This document shows, one piece after another, positions 567-23,174 of a stretch of 25,351 nucleotides of DNA. The first letter of the stretch is position 1. Each line of letters starts with the position of its first letter. The notes under the pieces were generated by a model. It had not been told where the DNA came from. It ran no database searches and worked only from the letters and a program-made list of their open reading frames with translations. Made by a program: the position numbers and the translations under genes. This DNA is from Candidatus Hodarchaeota archaeon (GTDB lineage Archaea > Asgardarchaeota > Heimdallarchaeia > Hodarchaeales > Hodarchaeaceae): the NCBI GenBank assembly GCA_029856365.1, contig JAHQWW010000049.1, positions 1 to 25,351 of the forward strand, given 5' to 3'.

Positions 567-1085
567 TCACGTAACTAGTTCCTGACCTTTTGTGATCTTG
601 ATCCGACAGGGGGGAGGAAATTTGGATTTACCACGACGTAATGCCTCCTTAGCTACTGTAACATTCTCTGGATAAGTTCGAACGAAGAGAATTCGATCAC
701 CTTCAAACACACGCGCGGCAACACTAATTACTTTACCAAAAGCTTTTCGCATACCATCCTGTAAACGATCTGCTCCAGCACCAGTCATCATTTTATTCTC
801 ACGGATCCGATGATGAGGATAGATACAAACACGGTAATGGTAGTTGTCACGACCTAGATTTCGCGTTAAAAATCGATTTACATGGATTCGAGCAGCTTCT
901 AGAGCATTATGGGAAATTTGACATCTTTCATCAGAGATCAATGATACTTCTAAGGGGAACTCTTTATCTGGTGATCCGAAATCGAAAGCACGAATTTTTG
1001 GTTCAGGACCGCCTTTAATGTATTTCTTCCGCGTGTATGGAGGTCTATCAACTCGAGTATAGCAGTAAGCAGGTCTTTTTCCCAT
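567..1085 (-). CDS. rpl10e: 50S ribosomal protein uL16 (L10e)
   Basis: MGKRPAYCY N-terminus, ALEAARI, YPHHRIRENKM..GAGADRLQDGMR..FGK; start placed at the second ATG (1085). Confidence 0.97.
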   Translation of the reverse strand: MGKRPAYCYTRVDRPPYTRKKYIKGGPEPKIRAFDFGSPDKEFPLEVSLISDERCQISHNALEAARIHVNRFLTRNLGRDNYHYRVCIYPHHRIRENKMMTGAGADRLQDGMRKAFGKVISVAARVFEGDRILFVRTYPENVTVAKEALRRGKSKFPPPCRIKITKGQELVT

Positions 1086-1570
1086 TTTTTTCCGCTCCAT
1101 TTCTATTTACAATATTAGTAACAAAATTAACTATAAGAAATAAGTCATTTGTGATTATACTATCCCTCATGACACAAGAAAATAGATTAATATCAAAATT
1201 ACGCTATTTTCATATATGAAATACACATATTTTATAGTAATTTGATACCAAAATAGTTGTATTATTTATATATTTTAGGTCTAATATATCCAAAAAGTTA
1301 ATAAAATATTTCTGCATAATTTATTATTTAGATAAATACCTATGCTTTTCCTATATCTATTCGTGTGAATAAAGTTAGTAAAAAAGAGACAACAGTTCCG
1401 ATTTTCTAAGAAACTAACTTTTTGATTAGGATTTCGTTTGTTGATTGGATAATCAGCAAATAAACAATAAATTACTCTTTAAATTAATAATTAATAAACA
1501 AGAATTATTTAAAATACGAATAAACAGTATAAAAGGATTATTGCTGTACTTTTTGATTGGAGGATTTTAT

Positions 1571-2719
1571 ATGAAAAATAAAAAGATTCAAGACAACTCC
1601 ATATCTATTCTCGGGCTAGGAAATGGAGGACATGCGTTTGCAGCATATGCGAAATCAAAAGGGTATAAAGTTAAGATTTGGAATCGGTCTAGATCAGTTC
1701 TTAAAGCTATAAAAAAGAATAAAGGGGTTACATCCTCAGGCTTATTGGAGGGACATTTTGACATTGATTTTGTTTCGCCCTCAATTCATAAGGTTATTGA
1801 AGAAAGTAAGTTAATAATGGTGGTAACAACCGCTAATGCACATAAAGAAATAGCAGCACGAATTGCTCCTTATTTGGATGACAATCAAATCGTTGTTTTA
1901 AATCCAGGGAGAACTGGAGGCGCAATTGAAGTCAGTAATTCCATCCGAGAAAACAATGGCCCTTTTAAACCACAAGTGGTAGAAGCTCAATCTCTCTTAT
2001 TTGTATCACGATGTTCAAAACCAGGCCAAGTAACAATTTCTGGGATAAAAAGAAGAGTACCAGTTTCAGCATTTCCATCCTGTGATAATAATGAAATTAT
2101 ACCATTCTTGAGTGATCTTAATAGCGCTTTTGGGGAAACTGAATCTGTGTTGAACACGTCTTTCGATAATATTGGTGCAATTTTTCATCCTACTCCTTTA
2201 TTATTGAATGTTGCTAGGTGTGAGGATCCAAACGTTCATTACCGACATTATATTGATGGAGTATCTCCATCAGTTGCTTCTTTTCTAGAAAAAATGGACA
2301 ATGAACGAGTTACTGTAGCAGCTGCTTACGGAGTACGGGCAATTACTTTACAAAAATGGTTACATTCAGTCTATGGAAGCAATGGAAGCAATCTATGTGA
2401 AACTATTCATAACACAAAGGAATATCAAAACGTTATGGCACCATCAACCTTAAATGTCCGTTATATCTTTGAAGATATTCCAACTGGTTTAATTCCACTA
2501 GCCAGCTTTGGAGAGGCAGCCGAAGTTCAGACCCCCTTCATTAATGCCATCATCAATTTAGCCAACTGTATGTTCAATAAGGACTATAGATCTCTTGGTA
2601 GAACTATAGAGTCATTGGAACTCCATAAAATTCCATTTTACTTACTAAAGGAGTATGTGACTCTTGCTGATGAATTCTATATTGAAATAATGAAACAGGA
2701 GAGTGTATTAGAGAAATGA
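1571..2719 (+). CDS. NAD(P)-dependent opine (octopine/nopaline) dehydrogenase family protein
   Basis: Rossmann motif ILGLGNGG, LNPGRTGGA, NIGAIFHP, RYIFEDIPTGL; GGAGG SD before ATG 1571 (the track's 1445 start is over-extended). Confidence 0.88.
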   Translation: MKNKKIQDNSISILGLGNGGHAFAAYAKSKGYKVKIWNRSRSVLKAIKKNKGVTSSGLLEGHFDIDFVSPSIHKVIEESKLIMVVTTANAHKEIAARIAPYLDDNQIVVLNPGRTGGAIEVSNSIRENNGPFKPQVVEAQSLLFVSRCSKPGQVTISGIKRRVPVSAFPSCDNNEIIPFLSDLNSAFGETESVLNTSFDNIGAIFHPTPLLLNVARCEDPNVHYRHYIDGVSPSVASFLEKMDNERVTVAAAYGVRAITLQKWLHSVYGSNGSNLCETIHNTKEYQNVMAPSTLNVRYIFEDIPTGLIPLASFGEAAEVQTPFINAIINLANCMFNKDYRSLGRTIESLELHKIPFYLLKEYVTLADEFYIEIMKQESVLEK

Positions 2720-4440
2720 CCAATAAAAATCTCATATTATGTGCCACATTAGGTTCATGTGTTCATGTTGCTGGAGTATTTCATTTTATGCAAATTGCAC
2801 GACAACAAGGTTATGAAACATCGTTCTTGCGCCCTCCAAACACAATTGAAGATATTATTAAAGAAATAAAAAAAGTGGATCCAAAAATAATTGCTTTAAG
2901 TTATCGTTTAACGCCAGAAGCATGTGTTGAGATTGTAAAGGAACTTGATAACAAAATCACTCCTAAAATGAGTGAGAAAAAGTGGATATTTGGGGGTACT
3001 AGTCCTGTGTGCAATGCTGTTGGGCGATTGGGAATATTTAATCGGCTTTTTGGTGGAAACGCAACAGAAAAAGATGTTATTGAATATTTGAGGAATTCAT
3101 TATCTCCTTTAAAGGAAAGAAAATCCTTTCCCAACAATTTAATTGATCGAATAGAATTATATTATCCTTATCCTTTATTACGTGCCCATTTTGGTGTCCC
3201 TTCTGTTGAAGAAACCCAAAAGGGTATCGAAACAATAGCATCAGCTAAAATCATTGATATTGTCTCGATTGGCCCAGATCAAAATTTTCAAGAACACTTT
3301 TTTAGCCCTAAAGAAATGAAAAAGTCAGAACAGGGAGCAGGCGGGGTTCCAATCCGTTCAAAAGAAGATTTAATTAAGTTTTATAAGGCTTCGAGATGTG
3401 GGAATTATCCTCTATTACGCTGTTATTCAGGCACAAGAAATTTAATAAAAATGGCAAGACTGCTTAAAAAAACAATTAACAATGCCTGGGGGGCCACTCC
3501 CCTATTTTGGTATTCTGAATTGGACAGTCGAAGTAGTAGGGCATTACAGGATGCGATTAAAGAGAATAAAGCTAATATGGCATGGCATGGTGCACATAAC
3601 ATCCCTTTTGAAGCAAATGAATCTCATCATTGGAGTCTTCGTTCAGCTCCAGATGCAATTGCTGTTGCAGCTGCCTACCTTGGTGCTTACAATGCAAAAA
3701 AGGCTGGAGTACAAAATTATATTTCTCAAATGATGTTCAATACTCCTATTGGTGTATCACCCAGATATGATTTAGCGAAAATGTTAGCTAAGACAGAATT
3801 GATCGAAAGTTTACATACTGAAACTTTTACTACGTATCGTCAGGTTCGTACTGGACTCTTGAGTTTTCCCGAGGATCCTCATCTTGCGAAAGGGCAACTG
3901 GCTTCTTCTATTCAAATGGCGATGTTTGTCAAACCACATATTGTCCATGTAGTTAGCTATTGCGAAGCTGATCATGCTGCTACGTCTCAAGATGTGATAG
4001 AAAGTGCTAAAATAGCTCACAAAGTGATTTCAAATTCTATAAAGGGTTTACCTTCAATCAACTTAGATCCAAAGCTTGAGGCATATAAATTAAAGCTTAT
4101 ATCTGATAGTTATTTAATTCTTCAAGCAATTCGAAATATATCAGAAGGATCAGTAAAAGACCCTTTTATCCATCCATTAACGTTAACAACAGCAGTTAAC
4201 CTAGGGATTTTAGATGCACCACATTTGAAGGGATCTGATTTGGCACGTGGAGAGATTAACACTGCTATTATTGATGGGAAATGTTTAGCTGTTGATCCAA
4301 ATTCATTTACTGTTTTATCCGAATTAGATCGCTTAAATATAATTTTAGAAGAGAATGGTTACCCACTCTTAGAGAAAGAATTGGAAGATTATGGAGCTAA
4401 GCAATTCTCGAAAAGATCAGCTATATCACCTCTGATATAA
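2716..4440 (+). CDS. Cobalamin-binding protein: N-terminal B12 Rossmann domain fused to a glutamate mutase E-like TIM barrel
   Basis: CVHVAG (DxHxxG variant), SYRL and FGG motifs; GlmE-like blocks SFPEDPHLAKG, VVSYCEA and GILDAPH; no CxxxCxxC; ATGA overlap with the upstream gene. Confidence 0.8.
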   Translation: MTNKNLILCATLGSCVHVAGVFHFMQIARQQGYETSFLRPPNTIEDIIKEIKKVDPKIIALSYRLTPEACVEIVKELDNKITPKMSEKKWIFGGTSPVCNAVGRLGIFNRLFGGNATEKDVIEYLRNSLSPLKERKSFPNNLIDRIELYYPYPLLRAHFGVPSVEETQKGIETIASAKIIDIVSIGPDQNFQEHFFSPKEMKKSEQGAGGVPIRSKEDLIKFYKASRCGNYPLLRCYSGTRNLIKMARLLKKTINNAWGATPLFWYSELDSRSSRALQDAIKENKANMAWHGAHNIPFEANESHHWSLRSAPDAIAVAAAYLGAYNAKKAGVQNYISQMMFNTPIGVSPRYDLAKMLAKTELIESLHTETFTTYRQVRTGLLSFPEDPHLAKGQLASSIQMAMFVKPHIVHVVSYCEADHAATSQDVIESAKIAHKVISNSIKGLPSINLDPKLEAYKLKLISDSYLILQAIRNISEGSVKDPFIHPLTLTTAVNLGILDAPHLKGSDLARGEINTAIIDGKCLAVDPNSFTVLSELDRLNIILEENGYPLLEKELEDYGAKQFSKRSAISPLI

Positions 4441-4571
4441 CTTTCAACTATTTCTTAGATTTTTTCAAATACTAAATTGATGATTTTTAGATTAGTATCG
4501 TATTATTCGCGTTCTTCTGCTAAGCTTCTAATAATGAGATTTGTTTATAGAAAATCTATGTTGTTCTGCTT

Positions 4572-4953
4572 ATGAAAAGACAAAAAATTGATCCCATAAC
4601 CGTTGAAATAATTGCACCAAATAATTGCAATAATTGCCTACCTTGGTGGATTGATGGGAGGATCAGCTGGAGAATGTGAACAATTCCTGTTAAATCCGGA
4701 AACACGAGAACAAAAAGTGTTACACTCTAAATTATCAAATTTTATAATGAAAAAGGGGGAAATTCTCAGAGTGGTGACTGCAGGTGGCGGAGGTTTTGGC
4801 CCAGCGATTGAACGTGATCTTGTAATAAAAGACTATTTATCAGGAAAAATAAGTAACAAACAATTACGAGATGATTATGGTGTTGTTTTAACGAATGCTG
4901 GAACTGTTGACTATCTTTTAACCTCAAACCTCCGTAAAATCCAAGGAGGTTAA
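4572..4953 (+). pseudogene. Hydantoinase B/oxoprolinase subunit with a large internal deletion and frameshift
   Basis: N-terminal MKRQKIDPITVEII joined out of frame to C-terminal GLMGG..G and TAGGGGFG..IS....RDDYGVV. Confidence 0.88.
4607..4637. repeat. Three copies of AATAATTGC at the hydantoinase B deletion junction
   Basis: Copies at 4607-4615, 4620-4628 and 4629-4637. Confidence 0.9.
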
Positions 4954-4956
4954 TTT

Positions 4957-7035
4957 ATGAGAGCAGCTATAGATATAGGGGGTACATTTACAGATGTAGT
5001 TCTATTTGATGAAAAGAGAGGAAAAATTTTTTCAACAAAAGTTCATTCAAATCCAAAATATCCCAATAAAGCCTTTATTGAAGGATTATTTCACATTAGG
5101 AAATACCTTGATTCTAATCATGAAGACATTCAAGAATTAGTCCATGGAACAACAATTGTCACAAACACTATCTTGGAAGGGAATAAAGCATGTGTTGGTA
5201 TGCTAGTTACAGAGGGATTTAGAGATATCTTGGAAATTGGACGACAGCAGAGACATAATCTGTATGATCTTATGATAGATCCTCCCAAGCCCTTAGTCCC
5301 TCGTCATTTAATTAAAGAAATAAAAGAAAGAATAAATGCTGATGGGAAAATATTGAGTCCTTTAAATATTGAAGACACCACAAGAATAATAGAAAACTTG
5401 ATTGAAAATGGTGTTGAATCATTGGCAGTTACTCTGTTATTTTCGTTTGAAAACCCGGTACATGAAAAGCAAATAAAGAGTATTGGCCTTAAATATATGC
5501 CGAAGGATTACATATTTGTCTCTAGCGAAATTTCACCAGAATTTAGGGAATATGAGCGGGCTAGTACGACAGTAGTTGCCGCAGCTGTTGCTCCACAAGT
5601 AATCAAATATTTGAATGAACTTGAAAAAGAATTAACAAAATTAAATGGGTCTAAAATTAAATTTACAATTATGCATTCAGGAGGAGGCACCATTCTGCCA
5701 GGGAATGTAAAAAAACAGCCTCATAAACTTGTAGAATCAGGGCCTGCTGCAGGTCTTATGGCTGCAACCCAGCTTACAAAAGTATTAGGCATAAAACGTG
5801 CAATATCTTTTGATATGGGAGGAACAGGTGCAAAAGCTGGAATTATATTAGATGGCACATACCAGTATACAACAGAATACGAAATAGGCGGAGGAATACA
5901 TCATAGTCAAAGATTAAAAGGAAGTGGATATCCTGTTCGATTTCCTATGCTTGATATTGCCGAAGTTGGCGCTGGAGCTGGAAGTATTGCGTGGATAAAT
6001 CCTGGTGGACTTTTAAAAGTAGGGCCTAAAAGTGCGGGGGTTATTCCTGGACCAGCATGTTATGGAAAAGGTGGAATAAATCCCACGGTTACTGATGCTC
6101 ATCTTGTAATAGGCCATTTAGCACCTGATTATTTTCTGGGTGGAAAACAAACGTTTTTCCCAAAATTGGCCATAAAAACCTTAATAAATCTCTCTAAAAC
6201 TGTGAATCTACCTTTAGAGGAGACAGCTCAAGGCATAATCAATATTGTTAATGTAAATATGTTACGAGTACTCGAACTTGTATCTATAGATCGAGGCTAC
6301 GATCCAAGAGCATTTACCTTAATAGCATTTGGTGGAGCTGGACCACTTCATGCATGTGACTTAGCAGAAAAGATGGCCATAAAAAATGTTATTATACCCC
6401 TCTTGCCTGGAGTTTTCTCTGCTTGGGGTCTTCTTTTTGCTGATATGTCTACTTATTTTGTTGAAACTGTAATGCTTAACTTGAATTTAAAAAACATAAA
6501 GAAAATCAATCAAATTTTCAATCGCTTATCACTTAAAGCTAATCAATTTTTTGAGAAAAATAAAGTCCCTTCAAAAAATCGCTCAATGGATATTTCTTTA
6601 GATTTACGCTATTTACGACAAAATTATGAACTAAATGTGAAATACGACAAATTAACAATGTTACAGAGAGATTTAGTGAAAATTAAAAATCAATTTCATA
6701 AAATTCATGAAGCAAATTATGGGCATTATTTTTCAAATGCTATTATTCAGATTGTTAATATACGGATAATGGCATCCGAAAAATTATCAAAACCCGGATT
6801 TAGTAAAATTAAATTAGCATCTAATACGTCTAAAGCCGCAAAATATGGAACACAAAACATTCAGATATCTAATTATATTAAAAAATATAAAATCTATCAT
6901 CGAAGTATACTACGTGCTGATCACGTTATCCATGGCCCAGCTATCATACAAGAAGAGTAAACGACCACTATAGTTAATTATGGATGGCAATTAAAAGTTG
7001 ACACCTATGGAAATCTTATAATCACTAGGGATTGA
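4957..7035 (+). pseudogene. Hydantoinase A/oxoprolinase ATPase subunit with a premature in-frame TAA at 6958-6960
   Basis: IDIGGTFTD, HGTT, ESGPAAG, DMGGT, GPKSAG..PGPACYG, FGGAGPLHA; the conserved tail TTTIVNYGWQLKVDTYGNLII continues in frame after the stop. Confidence 0.88.
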
Positions 7036-7090
7036 ACTTACTAGACAAATCTAATTGATACTCAAATAATTTCAGGTCATATGATGAAGA

Positions 7091-7597
7091 ATGCAACCTA
7101 GCTATACTATTTCAGGTAAGTTGGAAACTTCCAAAGAAGATTCTTCCAAGTTAAAAAATACTATAAGAATCTATAGAGAGGTCTGCAACTATATCAGCAA
7201 TATTGCATACAATGAAGGTTGTTTTAATTCAGTTGCACTTCATCATCTGACCTATAAAGATGTTAGATTGAAATATAACATTCCAGCGAATCTTGCAGTA
7301 AGAGCTAGAGATAAGGTTGTTTCAACATACAAGAAAAATAGGAAAAAATTACATTTCTTTAAAAGTTTGAGTATTGATTTAGATAATAGATTGTTAAGTA
7401 TATTATTAAATGAGGAGGAAGTAGTTGTATCAATTGCAACAATTAATAAACGGATTAAATCTAAATTATTGATTGATCCATCACAGAAAGAATTCTTAAA
7501 ACATCCTATAGTTAAAGCTAGATTAACACTAGAAGCAAATGAGTTTTTCATGAAAATTGTCGTCCGTCCTAGGAATGTCAATAATATCATAGAATAA
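7091..7597 (+). CDS. N-terminal half of an IS200/IS605 TnpB-like protein, no RuvC domain
   Basis: YREVCNYIS..LHHLTYKDVR.KYNIPANLAVRARDKV resembles TnpB/Cas12f N-termini; the ORF ends before any GxDxG motif. Confidence 0.7.
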   Translation: MQPSYTISGKLETSKEDSSKLKNTIRIYREVCNYISNIAYNEGCFNSVALHHLTYKDVRLKYNIPANLAVRARDKVVSTYKKNRKKLHFFKSLSIDLDNRLLSILLNEEEVVVSIATINKRIKSKLLIDPSQKEFLKHPIVKARLTLEANEFFMKIVVRPRNVNNIIE

Positions 7598-8070
7598 GCA
7601 GTTAGTAATTATTTTCAGTATCTAAATCTCGATAAATATTTAGATATACCTTTTTCGAGAGAACATCAAGAAAATTATTGTCTTTAAACACGCTATAGTG
7701 TTATAAAGTTAATATTCCCTAAACTCTTTAAATAAAATTAAATTTATGATTATAGAAAACTAAGGTAGAATTTGTTTTTAAATTGTTAAAACTAAGAGCT
7801 TGAAGTTAGTAAATCTCATAATACAACTTTGCCAAGAGTTTTTTAAGGGGAAACCATTTTAAATTAGCAAAAGTTTTAAAAAATCCTTTTTTCATAAATG
7901 AAATTGAATGGAACTCATTCATACGAATCATCTTGGTCTTCATTCACTTATGTTAAGTAATTGAAATTATCTTCAACTGTCAAATAAAAATTGTGGTCAT
8001 TTATTACACAATAGAATGTACTAGTCTTTAAATTTCAAATAAAATGAGAATTTTAATTACGGTGAAAAAT

Positions 8071-8289
8071 ATGAAAATATTTGCGGCAGCAAGAATTGAA
8101 AAGATTATCAGAGAGTCAGGAGCTATTAGAGTATCTTCTGATGCTATTGATACATTAAATGAGATAGTGACAGATCATGGTACAAACATAGCTAAGAAAG
8201 CAATTGAAATAGCTCATCAGTTAAAGCGTGGAACTATAAAAGAAGTCGATATAAAACTCGCAAATGTTAGTATCAATCAAAATCTTTAG
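8071..8289 (+). CDS. Archaeal histone, divergent variant
   Basis: Histone fold ARIEKIIRESGAIRVSSDA..TIKEVDIKLA; GGTGA SD before ATG 8071. Confidence 0.9.
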   Translation: MKIFAAARIEKIIRESGAIRVSSDAIDTLNEIVTDHGTNIAKKAIEIAHQLKRGTIKEVDIKLANVSINQNL

Positions 8290-8468
8290 CTTATGCTCTA
8301 TTTTTGTAGAATACTAATAGTTCTAATCTTTTTCAAAATGATTTTCTGGAAATCAAGAGAGAGGTAAAAATACCAATGATGGTACAATAAACCATCGCTT
8401 ACATATTAAGAACACAAATGAACGAATATCATAAATAATATTCAGTGATTTTAAGAGGAAAAGGAGTT

Positions 8469-8897
8469 ATGACGGTAATTAAAAATGGAAACATTGTGAA
8501 AATAAAATTCGAAGCCAAATCATTTAATGGAACTTTTTTTGATAGTTCAGAAATGCATGGTAAACTATTAAAAGCTAGAATTGGCTCTGGTGATCTTATC
8601 ACTGGTTTAGAGAATGCTCTTATTGGTATGGAAGAAGGTGAGGAAAAAGAAATTACCTTAAAGCCAGCCGAAGCATATGGAATTCCTATTCCAGAGTTAA
8701 TTCACATAATTGAAAAACCTCAAAAAAAAGGAAAAATTGATCCAGATACAGAAATCATTTTAAAATTTGAAAACAATGAAGAATTAAAAGCAAAAGTATT
8801 AAAGGAAACTAAAGATAGACTAATTCTTGATTTCAATCATCCTCTTGCGGGTAAAACATTAAAAGTGAAATTAAAAGTAATAGAAGTTGGTAATTGA
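8469..8897 (+). CDS. Short FKBP-type peptidyl-prolyl isomerase (SlyD-like)
   Basis: FDSS, GLENALIGM, PAEAYG, DFNHPLAGKTL; GGAG SD before ATG 8469. Confidence 0.92.
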   Translation: MTVIKNGNIVKIKFEAKSFNGTFFDSSEMHGKLLKARIGSGDLITGLENALIGMEEGEEKEITLKPAEAYGIPIPELIHIIEKPQKKGKIDPDTEIILKFENNEELKAKVLKETKDRLILDFNHPLAGKTLKVKLKVIEVGN

Positions 8898-9005
8898 TTA
8901 AAAAAGGGAAGTGGGGTTGAACGAAAAAAACCTGACTATAATCTGTTACTTTCTTAAATAGACTATTTTCATTTTGTAGGATAAATAAAACATTTTATTT
9001 TTTGA

Positions 9006-9290
9006 TTAATAGTGGTACGCACTTCTTCTGCGTTCTTCAGAACGGATTTGAACAACTCCTCGATGTATAGCACAAGAAACACAGTAATATCGAATCATTG
9101 GAATGCGAGGAACACGAGTTCCTTGTTGTCTTAATTCCTTTCTTATCATTGGATCAACTAATGACTTAAATACCGTCTTTCGTTTTGCTTTATCTCTTGG
9201 TACAAGTTGTCCGCAAGCAGAGCATTGGACTCTTTGAGTGGCACCTTTTTTCCCTTTTGATCTTCCTCTACTTTTTCTTTTCCTTCCCAT
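9006..9290 (-). CDS. rps26e: 30S ribosomal protein eS26
   Basis: RKSRGRSK, CSACG..VPRDKAK, YCVSCAIH..VVQIRS; GGAGGT SD. Confidence 0.96.
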   Translation of the reverse strand: MGRKRKSRGRSKGKKGATQRVQCSACGQLVPRDKAKRKTVFKSLVDPMIRKELRQQGTRVPRIPMIRYYCVSCAIHRGVVQIRSEERRRSAYHY

Positions 9291-9986
9291 GATTATATTA
9301 CCTCCTTTTTCTAAATGTTATTAAACATGAACAGGTATAATAAGGGAATAACAGGGAATTATTGTTTTCTAATGATCTTAAACCCTGATCTATCAGCATT
9401 TAAGGTTTTTCTTGGTCTCACATCCTCAGGTGACAAAGAAGAGAATAGATGAACGATAGGATTTTAATATTGAAAAACAAATGCTTTATTCCCAAACAAT
9501 TATCAGATGTCTTTATTGGTTATTATGGAGTACTAAAAAACTATATTATATAGATTTCGTAATCCACTAGAAATTTTAGTAGAAAGTGAAAAATTGATAT
9601 ATCATTCTTTTATTCTATTGAAATATCATATATGATAAATTTATTACTCTTCTAATTTTTACTTATAGTTAAGTGTTTTCTTAATTAACACGATTTTTAG
9701 TCATAAAAAACATTATTAACTTCATAATAGAGTTAATTTTTTAAATAAAATCTAATTAATCCTTAAATTGAAACATAAGATAGATTATTCGAAAATCACA
9801 TTTACAAAGAAAATAAGGTAAACAAAAGCTGAAGAATTCACATCCATCGAAAGAGTCGTGTATAACACAAAATTGAGGTCACAACACATATCGAGATAAA
9901 CAAGTTAGACCAGATGATTTCTCAATGTGTATTTACGCCGGATGTACTGAAATCTTTGACCTACTTAGAAACGAGGATACTTATAA

Positions 9987-11333
9987 ATGGCTGGAATATG
10001 TGGCATAACGAAGGAAGGGAAAAAAGAAGAAATAAACCAAATGCTGGATGACCTTGAACACCGAGGAGGCTTAGGACGAAAGGTTATAGAAACTAATGGT
10101 GTAACCCTTGGAATTGTATACCCTGAAGCTCAAAAAAATCTAGTTGGTTGTCAAAATTTTCATTGCATTGAAGATGCAATTGGTGATCTTCAATATGCAC
10201 GGGTGTGCTTTACCAAAGATTCAATCACTCTAGAGCGTGACCCACTAGGTATTACACCTATATATTTTGGACATGACACTGAAGGAACTCTATATTTTGC
10301 ATCAGAGGTAAAAGCCTTGATTGACTTTACTTCATATGTTAATCAGGTTCCTCCAGGTCATAAATATAATGGAGTACGCACTAGTCGATATTATGAATTG
10401 AAGAAGCAACCTCCAACTCAAGAGTCAGCCAAATATATAGCAAAAAAGTTATTTAGGTATTTGGACAAAGCAGTGGTAAAATTTATCAAGCTAGATCACG
10501 AACCAACAGGTTGTTGGCTATCAGGAGGTCTAGATTCAAGCATGGTCGCAGCACTTGCTAATTCTCACCTTAAAAAATTATATACGTTCTCTGTAGGATT
10601 AAAAGAATCTCCTGATATTCTTGCTGCTAGAGAGGTCGCAAATTATCTTCAAACTGAACACATTGAACATATAGTGACCTTTAATGAGCTTCTAGAAATG
10701 CTTCCTCAAGTAATCTACCATCTTGAATCTTTTGATGCATTACTAGTCCGCTCAAGTATTATGAATTTTATTGTGGCAGAAAAAGCGGCAAAATACGTAA
10801 ACTCTGTTTTTTCTGGCGAAGGAGCCGATGAACTGTTTGCGGGATATGCTTATCTTAAATCAGATGAATTTCCAAACCTCACAGACGAACTAATAGATAT
10901 TACAAACCGTTTACATGACACTGCTTTACAGAGAGTAGATCGAAGTGCCACTGCCCACGGAATTGTCGCATATGTGCCTTTTCTTGATTCAGATGTAGTA
11001 AATTTTGCTTTTTGTATTCCAGAACAGTATAAAATCCGTAATAATATTGAAAAATGGATTTTACGGAAAGCGATGGAAGAATATCTCCCAAAAAGCATTG
11101 TACACCGCACTAAAGCCAAATTTTGGAAAGGAGCAGGAGTTGAAGAAAAGATATCTCATTATATCGAAAAGCAGATAAGTGACCAAGAATTTGTAAAAGA
11201 ACGTGAATTAATGAATGGTTGGCTTTTAAATACGAAGGAAGAGCTATTCTACTATAGACTTTTCCAAGATAAGTTCGGGGAACTCAAAGAATTAGATTGG
11301 ATAGGCCGTACAAAAGGTGCGCCGAGATTGTAG
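9987..11333 (+). CDS. Asparagine synthetase B-like ATP-dependent amide ligase with a reduced glutaminase domain lacking Cys1
   Basis: MAGICG (canonical MCGI), HRG, RDPLGITPIY, FASEVKAL, LSGGLDSS, SGEGADELFAGY, PFLD, KWILR. Confidence 0.9.
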   Translation: MAGICGITKEGKKEEINQMLDDLEHRGGLGRKVIETNGVTLGIVYPEAQKNLVGCQNFHCIEDAIGDLQYARVCFTKDSITLERDPLGITPIYFGHDTEGTLYFASEVKALIDFTSYVNQVPPGHKYNGVRTSRYYELKKQPPTQESAKYIAKKLFRYLDKAVVKFIKLDHEPTGCWLSGGLDSSMVAALANSHLKKLYTFSVGLKESPDILAAREVANYLQTEHIEHIVTFNELLEMLPQVIYHLESFDALLVRSSIMNFIVAEKAAKYVNSVFSGEGADELFAGYAYLKSDEFPNLTDELIDITNRLHDTALQRVDRSATAHGIVAYVPFLDSDVVNFAFCIPEQYKIRNNIEKWILRKAMEEYLPKSIVHRTKAKFWKGAGVEEKISHYIEKQISDQEFVKERELMNGWLLNTKEELFYYRLFQDKFGELKELDWIGRTKGAPRL

Positions 11334-11353
11334 ATAGTAGATGGGAAACAAAG

Positions 11354-11806
11354 ATGGAAGTATCAAAAGAAAAAAAAGCAAAAAATAAAATTGTTGAAAT
11401 TGGGGATATAGTGGAAATTAAATATAATGGAAGATTACGTGATAAAACCATTTTTGATCAATCCGAGGAAAATCAGCCATTAAGATTTGAAGTAGGGGCT
11501 GAGGAGGTGATAAAAGGACTTGATAATGCTGTTATTGGAATGGAAATTGGACAAGAGAAGGAAGTTGAAATACCACCTCAAGAAGCATATGGAGGATATA
11601 ATCCAAAAAAGGTAAAAAAGATCCCTAAAGGACCTAAAGAAAGAAATCTAAAAAATAACACAATAATTGATGTTAAACTAAAAGACGGAAGATCAATTCT
11701 CGCAACAGTTCTAGAAGTAACTAGTAGTCATGTGTTACTTGATTTTAATCATCCTCTGGCTGGGAAAAATTTAATTTTCACAATAAAACTTCTGGAAATA
11801 AAATAA
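11354..11806 (+). CDS. Short FKBP-type peptidyl-prolyl isomerase (SlyD-like)
   Basis: YNGRL..FDQS, IKGLDNAVIGM, PPQEAYG, DFNHPLAGKNL; start placed at ATG 11354. Confidence 0.92.
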   Translation: MEVSKEKKAKNKIVEIGDIVEIKYNGRLRDKTIFDQSEENQPLRFEVGAEEVIKGLDNAVIGMEIGQEKEVEIPPQEAYGGYNPKKVKKIPKGPKERNLKNNTIIDVKLKDGRSILATVLEVTSSHVLLDFNHPLAGKNLIFTIKLLEIK

Positions 11807-11892: not shown

Positions 11893-13413
11893 GAGTTATT
11901 TTAATAACCTTTGCTAACTAACTCCGGAAAAGCATTTACATTGGGAGGAAAAGGTCGTGTTTGAACTACAATGACCCAATCCTACCATGCAAGGTTCAGA
12001 CTGGAAGCGTCTGTATCTGAGAACCCAATAATAGAACCGTTTCTTAAAGGTTCCGCAGAAGTCGAAATTCTCTGTCCAAAATGTGGGCCAAACCGCAGAA
12101 AGATCAAGAAGAATGGCCCTGATAGGAATCATAGGGAGAAACCGGAATTGTTTTACTGTAACCGTCATCATTGTTCGTTTTATGTGCACACCTCATGGAT
12201 ATTCCTTCAATTATCAAGTGTATTACTGGAGAGAATTGTATACGACCTGTTTGAAGAGCGATTGACACCAAAAGCAGTAGTGACCGTTCATAAGGTCAGT
12301 CCCAGCCTGATATCGATGATTAGACACCATTTTCGGGAAGCGTTGGAACAGAAACTGGCCATTCTCGCCAAAAGAAGAAAACGACTGCAACAAGAGACCC
12401 AGCTTCCTGTTCCACTGGAATGGGCTGTTTGGTGGGATGAGACCTTTTTTACCCTTGGGAACACCTCTTGGTGCTTAATTCTATTGGTTAATGCGAGAGG
12501 AGAGCCTTTAGGTTGGAAGTTCAGTCGCACCCGAAAGACTGAAGACTATCTCGCATTAATTTACGCTGTAAGAGACAAGCTTCCCTCACTGATCATCTTT
12601 GTTGGAAACGCTTGGACTGCCTATCAAAAGACTTGTGAAAAGCTGAAAGAGGAGTGTTTCTTAATTGAACACGTCCATAGTCACCCCTGGGATAAAGTTC
12701 GGCTTCATCATTTCTGCCCAACGGAAAACAAGGACACAATACATCAGACTAGCTTGGAAATGCCTTATAAAAGCTTTGTTACTAATCAGCCAGTTGAAGG
12801 AAGAGCGTATACGCGAACACATAAATCATACGATCTTAATGTTCCCAAACGAAGGTGTGGCAGACCGAAAGGCTCAAAAGATCACCAAAAACGTCGGCCA
12901 CGTCATGCACTAAAACCCAAAGCTCGTAAGAGCCTGAAACAACGACGAGGACGAAAAAGTCTTATGAAACACGGTCGACGGTTCTGTTTTCATCCTCACC
13001 CAGTCTCCGTGGGTTGGAATATTCAATGGCTCTCTCCTCCTCTCAAGGAGTCATCTCTCCAGAATTCTTCCGTCGAGGAGTTAGAGTTGTTGCTAGACAT
13101 CACTTATAAATTGATGGGAGGAGGAGTCATCCAATCGAATCGTATTGAAGGTGTCAATCGTGAAATCAAGGCAATCATCTCTGATCGCGGGTTAAAAAGT
13201 CCTGCACAAGTCAACGGGATCATTGATGACCATCTTCGCTATTGGGGGAATCATTTTCCTTCAACTAATCTTAAAAAGACAGTTAATTCTCCAGTTACCC
13301 CTTCCACTGCTTTTACTCGTCTTTTTGAGTTTTTTTGTCCTGTTCGAGAGTCTTTTACGATCTTGTCAGGTGTTTTTTAGTGAGGTTTTAAGCCAAGATT
13401 TAAAAAATAACTT
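11893..13413 (+). mobile_element. Insertion sequence (IS1/IS6/IS1595-like DDE type), 1521 bp
   Basis: 8-bp direct repeat GAAATTAT at 11885-11892 and 13414-13421; imperfect terminal inverted repeats (22/32 match); more GC-rich than the flanks. Confidence 0.88.
11971..13380 (+). CDS. DDE transposase with N-terminal Zn ribbon and HTH; second catalytic Asp apparently replaced by Asn
   Basis: CPKCG..YC, WWDETFF, FVGNAWTAY, SNRIEGVN. Confidence 0.8.
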   Translation: MTQSYHARFRLEASVSENPIIEPFLKGSAEVEILCPKCGPNRRKIKKNGPDRNHREKPELFYCNRHHCSFYVHTSWIFLQLSSVLLERIVYDLFEERLTPKAVVTVHKVSPSLISMIRHHFREALEQKLAILAKRRKRLQQETQLPVPLEWAVWWDETFFTLGNTSWCLILLVNARGEPLGWKFSRTRKTEDYLALIYAVRDKLPSLIIFVGNAWTAYQKTCEKLKEECFLIEHVHSHPWDKVRLHHFCPTENKDTIHQTSLEMPYKSFVTNQPVEGRAYTRTHKSYDLNVPKRRCGRPKGSKDHQKRRPRHALKPKARKSLKQRRGRKSLMKHGRRFCFHPHPVSVGWNIQWLSPPLKESSLQNSSVEELELLLDITYKLMGGGVIQSNRIEGVNREIKAIISDRGLKSPAQVNGIIDDHLRYWGNHFPSTNLKKTVNSPVTPSTAFTRLFEFFCPVRESFTILSGVF

Positions 13414-22394: not shown

Positions 22395-23174
22395 CTAGGA
22401 TTCTTCCTGTTCAGGAGTGCTATTTTCTTCTTTTTCTTTCCCTTCTTCTTGAATATCAGTTTCTTCATCTGTGAGGGTAGTTTTCTGGTAATCAAAAAGA
22501 TCAACGAATTTGACAACTTTGAAATTGAGAAAATCCCTGAGATCTGTTGCAAGAGTATATTTTGCAATCGCTAGGCCTTCCATAAAGATAAGATAATTTG
22601 GCAAAGAAACAGATATGGTGTCAGGATCTTCTGACACTTCGATAGTGATCTCATCCATATTGATTCCTGGAAAACGGCGAGAAATTATTTCTTTTCGTAT
22701 TTCTTCTTCCTCCTCTAGATGTTCTACCACAGTAATATCGAATATCAAATCCTTTCCTGCAAGAGGATGATTAAAATCAATGCGTGATCGGCCTCCGCCG
22801 ACTGAAACTATAGTTCCGCTTCGACCTGCCAGTTGTACTCGATTTCCAACCCTTGGGTCAAGATTAGCTTTTCGAAGTCGTTTTGTTGGAACCATTTCAA
22901 TTTTTTTGCTGTCTCTTTCACCGTACGCATCTATTGTTGCAATTTCAAAGGTTTGAGGAGAATTTAGCTCAAGTCCTATAAGACTTCGAGCTAGTCCTGG
23001 AATTAAAAATTTCTCATCCCCGACACGACACAACAGGGGTTTATATGTACGTTTTTCATCAAATATTCGCTCAGAGCGAGCAATATCTTCCAATGTTGTA
23101 TCAAAAACTTTAGAATTTTCTTTTAGGCGGCCAGTATAATCAATTTTCACCCAATCATCTTCAGCAATCGGCAT
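22395..23174 (-). CDS. Long-type archaeal FKBP peptidyl-prolyl isomerase
   Basis: DYTGRL..VFDTT, AYGERD, DFNHPLAGK, extra C-terminal domain and acidic tail. Confidence 0.93.
   Translation of the reverse strand: MPIAEDDWVKIDYTGRLKENSKVFDTTLEDIARSERIFDEKRTYKPLLCRVGDEKFLIPGLARSLIGLELNSPQTFEIATIDAYGERDSKKIEMVPTKRLRKANLDPRVGNRVQLAGRSGTIVSVGGGRSRIDFNHPLAGKDLIFDITVVEHLEEEEEIRKEIISRRFPGINMDEITIEVSEDPDTISVSLPNYLIFMEGLAIAKYTLATDLRDFLNFKVVKFVDLFDYQKTTLTDEETDIQEEGKEKEENSTPEQEES

Follow-up and report, generated by a model that had tools for sequence, protein, structure and literature searches.

A conserved opine dehydrogenase and mutase-like B12 protein gene pair in a Hodarchaeota archaeon, with an occasional AsnB-like ligase

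Overview

We found that an opine dehydrogenase (ODH) and a B12-binding protein, encoded side by side in a 25,351-nucleotide stretch of DNA from a Candidatus Hodarchaeota archaeon (contig JAHQWW010000049.1, hereafter the window), form a conserved functional pair. This is supported by their adjacency across archaea and bacteria. We favour, at a probability of roughly 0.55, a reading in which the two translationally coupled enzymes, joined by an AsnB-like ligase in a minority of lineages, constitute a module of a salt-stress small-molecule pathway. Five kinds of observation underlie it: gene coupling, fold, the specificity residues of the ODH, co-occurrence and the riboswitches of bacterial loci. 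A sequence-only reading of this DNA had proposed an uncharacterised pathway of ODH, B12 mutase and Cys-less AsnB-like ligase, possibly with a lactam hydrolase; its observation was partly confirmed and its interpretation partly supported. The features concerned are listed in Table 1.

Table 1 Features of the window discussed in the text.
Feature	Position	Strand	Evidence
Opine dehydrogenase (ODH), ArODH/CENDH type, 382 aa	1571..2719	+	PF02317 145 bits; 1bg6
Single-chain protein with B12-binding domain and GlmE-like barrel, 574 aa	2716..4440	+	PF02310, weak PF06368, predicted structure
hyuB relic: 5' stub (4572-4679) and 3' end (4612-4953) in other frame	4572..4953	+	PF02538, tblastn
hyuA, hydantoinase/oxoprolinase A, 667 aa, intact	4957..6960	+	PF05378, PF01968, PF19278
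Short AsnB-like amide ligase with PP-loop and without Cys1, 448 aa	9987..11333	+	PF00733 217 bits

Distribution of the gene pair

The stop codon of the ODH gene (TGA, 2717-2719) overlaps the start codon of the B12 gene, which confirms the ATGA coupling seen earlier. In 74 of 80 related archaeal and bacterial loci, with representatives of Asgard, Theionarchaea, Thermococci, Bacillota, Aminicenantes, Gemmatimonadota and other groups, ODH lay immediately 5' of the B12 gene. The stop and start codons overlapped by 4 nt in 43 of 72 loci and were at most 10 nt apart in 71 of the 72.

Zhang, Rodionov, Gelfand and Gladyshev (2009, BMC Genomics 10:78; PMC2667541) predicted a new family of B12-dependent proteins in 11 bacteria of four phyla, having a distant N-terminal B12-binding domain, always found beside a pfam02317 octopine/nopaline dehydrogenase and, in several organisms, close to D-Ala-D-Ala ligase and asparagine synthase. 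This description fits the module exactly, and the gene combination was already in print in 2009. As far as our literature searches reach, we found no characterised pathway with this combination, so the earlier statement to that effect holds. Beyond the 2009 prediction, the present analysis adds Asgard and other archaea, many more phyla, and evidence from fold, gene fusions, riboswitches and ODH specificity.

Riboswitches and proposed pathway

In 20 of 34 bacterial loci the operon has a c-di-AMP riboswitch immediately in front, and an nhaA-I Li+/Na+ riboswitch preceded it in three (L038, L051 and L104). In L051 the ODH and B12 genes are separated and each has its own nhaA-I copy in front. These ligands fit "osmolyte", one of the roles suggested from sequence, but it should be noted that the riboswitch evidence comes from bacterial loci only.

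We infer which substrates are used, in what order the steps occur and what physiological role they have in archaea, as follows. An adenosylcobalamin (AdoCbl)-dependent, glutamate-mutase-like enzyme would rearrange the skeleton of an amino-dicarboxylate, in the simplest form converting L-glutamate to 3-methylaspartate or shifting an N-substituted glutamate in the same way. The ODH would reductively condense an acidic L-amino acid with pyruvate, using NAD(P)H, to give an N-(1-carboxyethyl) polycarboxylate. In the minority of lineages which have it, this genome included, the Cys1-less AsnB-like ligase may use ammonia or an amine to amidate an aspartate-like carboxylate of the product. The product would most likely be a small solute synthesised under salt or osmotic stress, serving as a K+ counter-ion or, after amidation, as a compatible solute.

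The pair could instead degrade an amino acid or opine-type compound for energy, with the mutase feeding a fermentation and the ODH oxidatively splitting a secondary amine, a role which we consider unlikely. Opine dehydrogenases are reversible, and most carriers of the pair are anaerobic peptide or amino-acid fermenters. The nearest folds of the B12 protein (GlmE, KamD and OraE) also serve fermentations, as glutamate, lysine and ornithine mutases, with a dehydrogenase acting after the mutase. However, there are no conserved downstream catabolic genes beside the pair. Canonical GlmE was not found in five carrier genomes, nor was there a convincing match to methylaspartase in five genomes, the sole match over the cut-off being a partial one of 27.2 bits; we count both searches in support of our reading that the module does not serve glutamate fermentation. 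ATP-consuming ligases (AsnB-like, Ddl-like and fused ATP-grasp) recur as partners, which argues for biosynthesis, and riboswitches for c-di-AMP and Li+/Na+ typically belong to genes for ion and osmolyte homeostasis, not to fermentation genes.

The AsnB-like ligase

The membership of the AsnB-like ligase had been named the weakest link of the proposed pathway. As described previously, the AsnB-like gene begins 5.5 kb after the B12 gene and its product lacks Cys1, the N-terminus (MAGICGI) having Ala at the site of the nucleophile. The protein shares the PP-loop adenylating domain, with SGGLDSS and SGEGxDE motifs, with AsnB (E. coli, 1ct9), beta-lactam synthetase (beta-LS, 1jgt) and CarA (1q15), of which beta-LS and CarA are likewise without the N-terminal Cys nucleophile. 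Its N-terminal domain is shorter by around 100 residues, and AsnB profile models match it only from position 122 onwards, with scores under their equivalog cut-offs. It scored 172 bits against 1ct9, 85 against CarA and 66 against beta-LS; being much closer to AsnB, it is more likely to amidate an aspartate-like carboxylate than to form a lactam.

Membership gained support from other genomes, where a Cys-less AsnB homologue proved a recurrent, if occasional, partner: it directly adjoins the pair in at least 9 of the 80 loci, in varying gene orders. These include the short subfamily of approximately 447 aa in several phyla (L017, L040, L047, L055 and L056) and longer types in L038, L048, L065 and L080, where the operons are riboswitch-led. 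The B12 gene was present in all 9 Asgard genomes with a short AsnB (background 78/200), in 4 of them within approximately 2 kb of it, and in 5 of the 6 Aminicenantia genomes with a short AsnB (background 7/101). At metagenome loci the pair accompanied 6 of 10 informative short AsnB genes vs 1 of 65 canonical AsnB genes. Other ligases can stand in for it, namely a Ddl-like ATP-grasp in 6 loci and the GshB/RimK-type ATP-grasp that is fused to the mutase in P0255. A search of 10 same-genus genomes found no short AsnB, and in the closest relative (L001) the AsnB-like gene has a 960-bp deletion while the ODH-B12 pair is intact, indicating that this gene is dispensable. Together these data support the AsnB-like enzyme as an occasional, accessory third member of the module.

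It is also conceivable, although in our view improbable, that these genes are chance neighbours, only ODH and B12 belonging together, with the AsnB-like protein an ammonia-dependent asparagine synthetase and hyuA an unrelated relic. The synthetase domain resembles that of a genuine asparagine synthetase and is nearest to that of E. coli AsnB, and its PP-loop and SGEG motif are conserved. The genome (83.6% completeness) encodes AsnRS, no GatB match passed the cut-off, and neither AsnA nor another full AsnB was found, so that the enzyme may simply make asparagine from ammonia; at the place of the canonical AsnB of L001 the window has a foreign 469-aa ORF. Unrelated genes and a mobile-element fragment separate the pair from the AsnB-like gene, with a TnpB-N-terminal-like fragment, a histone gene and an FKBP gene lying between hyuA and the ligase. 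Against this, the short AsnB tracks the B12 gene in two phyla and lies within the operon in several unrelated lineages with differing gene orders, and a housekeeping role is at odds with its presence in just ~5% of Asgard genomes.

The hyuB relic and hyuA

HyuA and HyuB form ATP-dependent lactam hydrolases such as 5-oxoprolinase, N-methylhydantoinase and caprolactamase. Of the hydantoinase B and A genes read on the same strand after the B12 gene, hyuA stands, with all three Pfam domains of these enzymes, and hyuB is a relic. A stub of about 35 codons is followed, after an internal deletion of about 450 codons, by a 3' part matching only positions 466-518 of the 519 in PF02538 (around 50 final residues). 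With an intact paralogue from contig C14 as the tblastn query, only residues 471-520 of this paralogue matched. A contig from a second sample, covering 4216-5886, carries the same relic, which is thus not an assembly artefact. The B subunit is obligatory in the known enzymes, and with its gene destroyed hyuA is left without a working partner.

The best NCBIfam match of hyuA was caprolactamase alpha, at 469 bits vs an equivalog cut-off of 1000 bits. The hyuBA genes are deleted in the closest relatives, hyuA being missing from L001, L002 and L004 and reduced to a 140-bp relic in L003, and hyuBA adjoined the B12 gene in 0 of the 80 loci. The suggested place of a lactam hydrolase in the pathway is therefore not upheld, and this absence also fits the chance-neighbour explanation. 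Three lineages carry this HyuA subtype beside their short AsnB, so it may have a peripheral role in lactam salvage; genomes that lack the system have the subtype as well. We read hyuB and hyuA as a decaying neighbour, whose former role was at most to salvage a lactam side product of the amidated compound.

Fold and class of the B12 protein

The B12-binding domain is N-terminal (PF02310 over residues 7-97) and the match to PF06368 is under the cut-off (17.9 bits). In the structure model (pLDDT 84) residues 135-542 superposed on GlmE (1cb7_B; VIA-align) with Z 35.8 and an rmsd of 3.0 Å over 372 residues, in agreement with the mutase initially proposed. GlmE was also the top fold match (Foldseek E 1e-16), with KamD, OraE and methylmalonyl-CoA mutase (MCM) ranking behind. 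The closest structure is thus glutamate (methylaspartate) mutase of Clostridium cochlearium (GlmS/GlmE with GlmL/MutL; EC 5.4.99.1; 1cb7, 6h9e), with which the protein has in common a B12-binding domain of the Rossmann type that carries the cobalt-ligand His. Identity to GlmE is only ~14%. E417, a conserved Glu, aligns with E330 of GlmE, and Val replaces GlmE K326; for the N-terminal half of the barrel, including the region of the glutamate-binding arginines, alignment to GlmE by sequence fails. Unlike in GlmS/GlmE, the S and E parts are one chain, and the partner is an ODH rather than the methylaspartase of glutamate mutase. In distant family members, MutL/GlmL is fused to the B12 protein (P0265, P0269 and P0270) and a GshB/RimK-type ATP-grasp to the mutase (P0255). 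We found no reported substrate, product or activity for the enzyme in the literature. We regard it as a candidate orphan AdoCbl-mutase-like, glutamate-mutase-E-like single-chain enzyme.

A role as corrinoid methyl carrier or methyltransferase, in place of a radical mutase, appears very unlikely. The protein is often labelled "methionine synthase" in databases, corrinoid proteins (4jgi, 7xcn and 1y80) are among the best sequence matches of its B12 domain, and its motif is CxHxxG, with Cys for the usual Asp of DxHxxG. However, its catalytic domain fits the barrels of GlmE, KamD, OraE and MCM far better than pterin-binding barrels, which reach a Z of only ~17. Members of the family are fused to MutL, which serves glutamate mutase as accessory protein, the gene for a CobA/BtuR adenosyltransferase adjoins the module on its upstream side in Thermococci (L015 and L017), and no conserved methyltransferase partner gene lies beside the B12 gene.

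Specificity of the opine dehydrogenase

The ODH matched PDB 1bg6, the N-(1-D-carboxyethyl)-L-norvaline dehydrogenase of Arthrobacter sp. 1C (ArODH), over residues 6-352 (E 2.8e-77, 263 bits), and shares its Rossmann motif, His/Asp dyad and Trp. R114 and G202 align with ArODH positions 111 and 198, where Arg and Gly switch specificity to L-Asp (Telek et al. 2024, PMC10787698). The hot-spring mODHs of that study, which have the same Arg/Gly pair and NPGRTGGA and NIGAIFHP motifs as our ODH, use L-Asp or L-Glu with pyruvate and NADPH; they were characterised without genomic context and their KM for L-Asp is high (0.5-25 mM; PMC10787698), so the native substrate may differ and could be, for example, the product of the mutase. 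The Arg and Gly were unchanged in 72 of 72 B12-linked ODHs, and from these residues we predict an ODH of the acidic-amino-acid type.

CntM-type opine dehydrogenases complete metallophores such as staphylopine and pseudopaline, but that this module makes such an opine chelator is highly improbable, as its ArODH-type ODH carries the residues for acidic substrates, no nicotianamine-synthase-like gene or conserved exporter or importer was found beside the pair, and the riboswitch ligands do not signal metal limitation. The 382-aa ODH starts at an ATG at 1571, and a longer ORF opens at a TTG at 1445.

Conservation of the opine dehydrogenase-B12 gene pair

The sequence-only reading had described a translational coupling (ATGA) between an opine dehydrogenase (ODH) gene and a gene for a B12 protein, and had made much depend on whether homologues of the two occur together in other genomes. 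The ATGA overlap of the ODH stop and the B12 gene start is present in the window sequence, and the two genes do travel together: a pattern scan over 185,579 species genomes gave 80 loci, and 74 of these have a same-strand ODH gene immediately before the B12 gene. In 4 of the 6 exceptions the match lies at a contig end. A 4-nt overlap of ODH stop and B12 start occurs in 43 of 72 loci, and the two are no more than 10 nt apart in 71 of 72. Carriers of the pair include Asgard lineages, Theionarchaea, Thermococci, Bacillota, Aminicenantes, Gemmatimonadota, Planctomycetia and Armatimonadota, among others, and the B12 gene was found in 78 of 200 sampled Asgard genomes. Cultured carriers are Caldanaerobacter subterraneus, Thermoanaerobacter, Tepidanaerobacter acetatoxydans and [Clostridium] ultunense. 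No conserved neighbour other than ODH was found among the B12 loci examined. The window itself comes from an Asgard archaeon, and the closest homologues of its B12 protein carry the names Promethearchaeota or Hodarchaeales. Two B12 genes from Aminicenantia (G355:C127:33204-34835 and G570:C1:489768-491396) each have a single stop codon in frame, TAA in the former and TGA in the latter, which may reflect sequencing error, pseudogenisation or recoding.

Features of the window discussed in the text (G+C content of the window approximately 34%)
Feature	Position	Strand	Remark
L10e gene	567-1100	-	
Opine dehydrogenase (ODH) gene	1571-2719	+	
B12 protein gene	2716-4440	+	574 aa
hyuB relic	4572-4953	+	
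hyuA	4957-6960	+	intact
TnpB-N-terminal-like fragment	7091-7597	+	168 aa; TnpB/IS605-OrfB match 33 bits, below cut-off
Histone gene	8044-8289	+	
FKBP gene	8445-8897	+	between histone gene and AsnB-like gene
AsnB-like gene	9987-11333	+	448 aa
FKBP-type prolyl isomerase gene	11297-11806		
ORF	11971-13380		469 aa; weak DDE-transposase match only
FKBP-type prolyl isomerase gene	22395-23174		

The B12 family is large, with at least 4,987 homologues in a search of 5.8 billion proteins and 253 representatives at E ≤ 1e−30 in a full-library profile search (library clustered at 50% identity). Its members occur in anaerobic archaea, Asgard lineages among them, and in many phyla of bacteria, and it is among the few large AdoCbl-enzyme families without a known reaction. 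Zhang et al. 2009 (PMC2667541) predicted this B12 family, with an obligatory ODH neighbour and occasional Ddl and AsnB neighbours; the features they gave, namely a distant N-terminal B12 domain, an adjacent pfam02317 gene and, in part of the genomes, a neighbouring AsnB or Ddl gene, are all found here. In the literature searched we found no characterisation of the B12-ODH module since 2009.

Fold and active site of the B12 protein

The B12-binding domain of the window protein was recognised by PF02310 at 33 bits (cut-off 32.1), and in sequence searches only this N-terminal domain matched solved structures. Of the base-off/His-on motif DxHxxG with its downstream Ser and Gly-Gly, H17, G20, S62 and G93 are invariant, and the Asp is replaced by Cys15 in most members. 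The protein was also modelled with AlphaFold (pLDDT 84). The best fold match of the model was the E chain of glutamate mutase (GlmE), with a Foldseek E value of 1e−16 to 6h9e_B and 1cb7_B and a VIA-align Z of 35.8 (rmsd 3.0 Å over 372 residues); lysine and ornithine aminomutases followed at Z of approximately 30–32 and methylmalonyl-CoA mutase at approximately 23. The catalytic TIM barrel of the model superposes on that of GlmE. A reading of the B12 protein as a methyltransferase is weaker than a reading as a mutase.

At 17.9 bits the window protein stays below the PF06368 (Met_asp_mut_E) cut-off of 26.6, which a few homologues just exceed, such as P0255 at 27.5 bits. When the family profile was compared to six GlmE sequences with hhalign in local mode, only the C-terminal half was aligned, with a probability of only 38% and an E value of 3e−4; in this weak alignment the invariant E417 pairs with GlmE E330, the conserved Glu contacting the adenosyl ribose, and GlmE K326 is aligned to V413. 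The residues which bind glutamate in GlmE, R66, R100 and R149 (the “arginine claw”) and E171, are invariant in the six GlmE sequences. Canonical GlmE was absent from the five carrier genomes examined.

Within the window there are no genes for adenosylation or reactivation factors. Two Thermococci-type loci (L015 and L017) have a gene for a CobA/BtuR adenosyltransferase upstream, and three library proteins are fusions of the B12 enzyme with the mutase accessory protein MutL/GlmL (P0265, P0269 and P0270; 826–1266 aa). In P0255 (863 aa) the B12 enzyme is fused to a GshB/RimK-type ATP-grasp ligase. We considered HyuA, which has its ASKHA fold class in common with MutL, as a possible reactivase of the mutase and rejected it, as it is of the typical three-domain type and adjoins a relic of hyuB, and as the 80 B12 loci contain no HyuA and no GlmL. 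Proteins of approximately 610–635 aa (P0285, P0309 and similar) form a sister group at a greater distance from the B12 family; they score 200–330 bits to the profile, have an N-terminal extension and match no Pfam family.

Substrate determinants of the opine dehydrogenase

The window ODH contains an Octopine_DH domain (PF02317, 145 bits; cut-off 30) and matches Arthrobacter CENDH (1bg6, here ArODH) at 263 bits (E = 2.8e−77) over residues 6–352. Its dinucleotide motif GxGxxG/A reads GLGNGGHA, and the catalytic His/Asp dyad and active-site Trp (H206, D302 and W263) are invariant in 16 B12-partner ODHs. R114 and G202 correspond to ArODH positions 111 (Arg) and 198 (Gly), and this Arg/Gly combination, the mark of the acidic-amino-acid subtype, is kept in 72 of 72 B12-linked ODHs. 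These two positions switch the specificity from hydrophobic amino acids to L-aspartate, and hot-spring ODHs which possess both determinants use L-Asp or L-Glu with pyruvate and NADPH (Telek et al. 2024, PMC10787698). The motifs NPGRTGGA and NIGAIFHP are common to these hot-spring enzymes and the B12-linked ODH.

Salt and osmotic riboswitches in bacterial loci

Of the 34 bacterial loci, 20 have a c-di-AMP riboswitch directly in front of the operon, and an nhaA-I Li+/Na+ riboswitch precedes two loci (L038 and L104). The bacterial B12-ODH module is connected to both of the salt and osmotic RNA sensors that are best understood. On a Planctomycetia contig (L051) the ODH and B12 genes lie 8 kb apart, and each is preceded by its own copy of nhaA-I, with identical scores (687-746 and 9796-9855).

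An optional AsnB-like ligase

As had been noted from the sequence, the AsnB homologue lacks Cys1: the protein starts MAGICGI, with Ala in place of the nucleophile, and none of its 120 closest homologues begins MC. It belongs to a short subfamily of approximately 447 aa with the N-terminus M-[S/A/G/T]-G-I-A-G. The glutaminase domain is shortened, and the PRK09431/TIGR01536 match starts only at model position 122. PF00733 scores 217 bits, and the PP-loop SGGLDSS and the SGEGADE motif align with E. coli AsnB (1ct9). This enzyme is also the closest to the synthetase domain (172 bits, versus 85 for CarA and 66 for beta-lactam synthetase), which disfavours a beta-lactam-synthetase-like reading. A Tyr-Glu catalytic dyad is the hallmark of beta-lactam synthetase and CarA; the protein retains the AsnB-type Glu of SGEG.

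The link between this ligase and the pair, put forward earlier from a single neighbourhood, found support in other genomes. A short or longer AsnB type directly adjoins the pair in at least 9 of the 80 loci, in four gene orders; it lies inside the c-di-AMP-led operon in L080, L048 and L065, and between the B12 and ODH genes, with an nhaA-I riboswitch in front, in L038. All nine Asgard genomes with short AsnB have the B12 gene, the two lying within approximately 2 kb in four of them, and among Aminicenantia the B12 gene is present in 5 of 6 genomes with short AsnB versus 7 of 101 overall. Sampling from the AsnB side gave an ODH or B12 gene in 6 of 10 informative short-type loci versus 1 of 65 canonical AsnB loci. 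The ligase is optional to the pair, since short AsnB was not found in any of the ten same-genus genomes searched and the orthologue in L001, the closest relative, has a 960-bp internal deletion.

The window genome (83.6% complete) has AsnRS, and neither AsnA nor a further full AsnB turned up in it, so the protein may be a plain asparagine synthetase. Its scores lie below the NCBIfam equivalog cut-offs (347 versus 499 for PRK09431; 229 versus 267 for TIGR01536), and a housekeeping role is the weaker reading beside the co-occurrence with the pair. In the Thermococci-type locus L017 (3301-9418) the gene order is CobA adenosyltransferase, small ORF, ODH, B12 enzyme, a D-glutamate-cyclase-like protein (PF14336) and short AsnB; apart from the PF14336 gene, nothing in the system hints at lactam formation by an enzyme.

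A proposed pathway to a salt-stress solute

The most economical reading is a mechanism of three steps, the order and substrates of which we infer. The B12 enzyme would carry out a radical 1,2-rearrangement of an amino-dicarboxylate, the ODH would reductively condense the rearranged acid with pyruvate and the AsnB-like ligase would, in some organisms, amidate the product, with a salt-stress solute as the outcome. The same two enzymes could work in a catabolic direction, a weaker reading when set beside the riboswitches of the bacterial loci. A metallophore as the product is weaker as well and was rejected, there being no supporting neighbour genes. Once identified, the product of the module would give B12 chemistry a further, new radical rearrangement, would explain the purpose of the prokaryotic “acidic” opine dehydrogenases and would probably reveal an undescribed osmoadaptation metabolite of anaerobes.

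Decay of hyuBA at the window

Hydantoinase B, which had been listed as a gene in the sequence-only reading, is a relic: only profile positions 466–518 of 519 are left, with a short N-terminal stub ahead in another frame. Approximately 10% of hyuB thus remains next to an intact HyuA, and the intact hyuB of the window genome is on another contig (C14). A contig from a second sample covers 4216-5886 with the same relic. In a contig from another sample there is an in-frame 6-nt insertion (TGATCT) at 4814, inside the relic, which is evolving without length constraint. A contig from a third sample, in which 4419 is joined to 6802 via 498 other letters, represents a related strain without most of the hyuB relic and hyuA. 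Of the closest relatives, L001, L002 and L004 lack the segment 4440-7005, and in L003 a hyuA relic of 140 bp is left. From the relic and these losses in relatives and strain it follows that hyuBA is an old neighbour in decay, and the proposed link of hyuBA to the B12 gene fails in the wider set (0 of 80 other loci). The corrected picture for the window is that of a core gene pair, to which an amide ligase is an optional addition, and of a lactamase gene that is dead.

A HyuA subtype 49–52% identical to that of the window does adjoin short AsnB in other lineages, namely in one Asgard genome (G133; gene order AsnB-hyuB-hyuA, then L10e), four Aminicenantia genomes and two metagenome contigs. This link is suggestive only, because 4 of the 7 Aminicenantia genomes with the subtype have neither short AsnB nor the B12 gene. 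A strict nesting of hyuBA genomes within AsnB genomes, and of these within B12 genomes, seemed to fit Asgard and broke on the same four genomes. We think it improbable, though worth stating, that all four families jointly produce and keep up stress solutes of a new class: the B12 enzyme would convert glutamate to 3-methylaspartate, the ODH would join this with pyruvate to an N-(1-carboxyethyl) tricarboxylate, the Cys-less AsnB would amidate it to a less charged solute and a dedicated HyuBA subtype would use ATP to reopen the lactam arising spontaneously from this amide. If true, this pathway to a compatible solute would be the first to depend on B12, and it would give prokaryotic opine dehydrogenases of the acidic type their first physiological role.

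Other features of the neighbourhood

The TnpB-like fragment keeps approximately 80% nucleotide identity in the closest relatives (L001–L004), where it lies directly 3′ of the B12 gene, and the 168-aa protein is possibly a fragment that has been domesticated, and not junk. The 469-aa ORF has a G+C content of approximately 44% versus a background of approximately 33%, and it stands exactly where L001 carries, on the other strand, a canonical AsnB of the MCGI type. Within 15 kb there are three genes for FKBP-type prolyl isomerases, and one of them shares part of its length with the 3′ end of the AsnB-like gene. In G133 (L180, contig C72, 8291-9832), which belongs to a distant Asgard family, the AsnB-hyuBA unit is flanked by L10e and TFIIB genes; L10e likewise flanks the ODH gene in the window, and the arrangement looks like an old synteny block which has been reshuffled.
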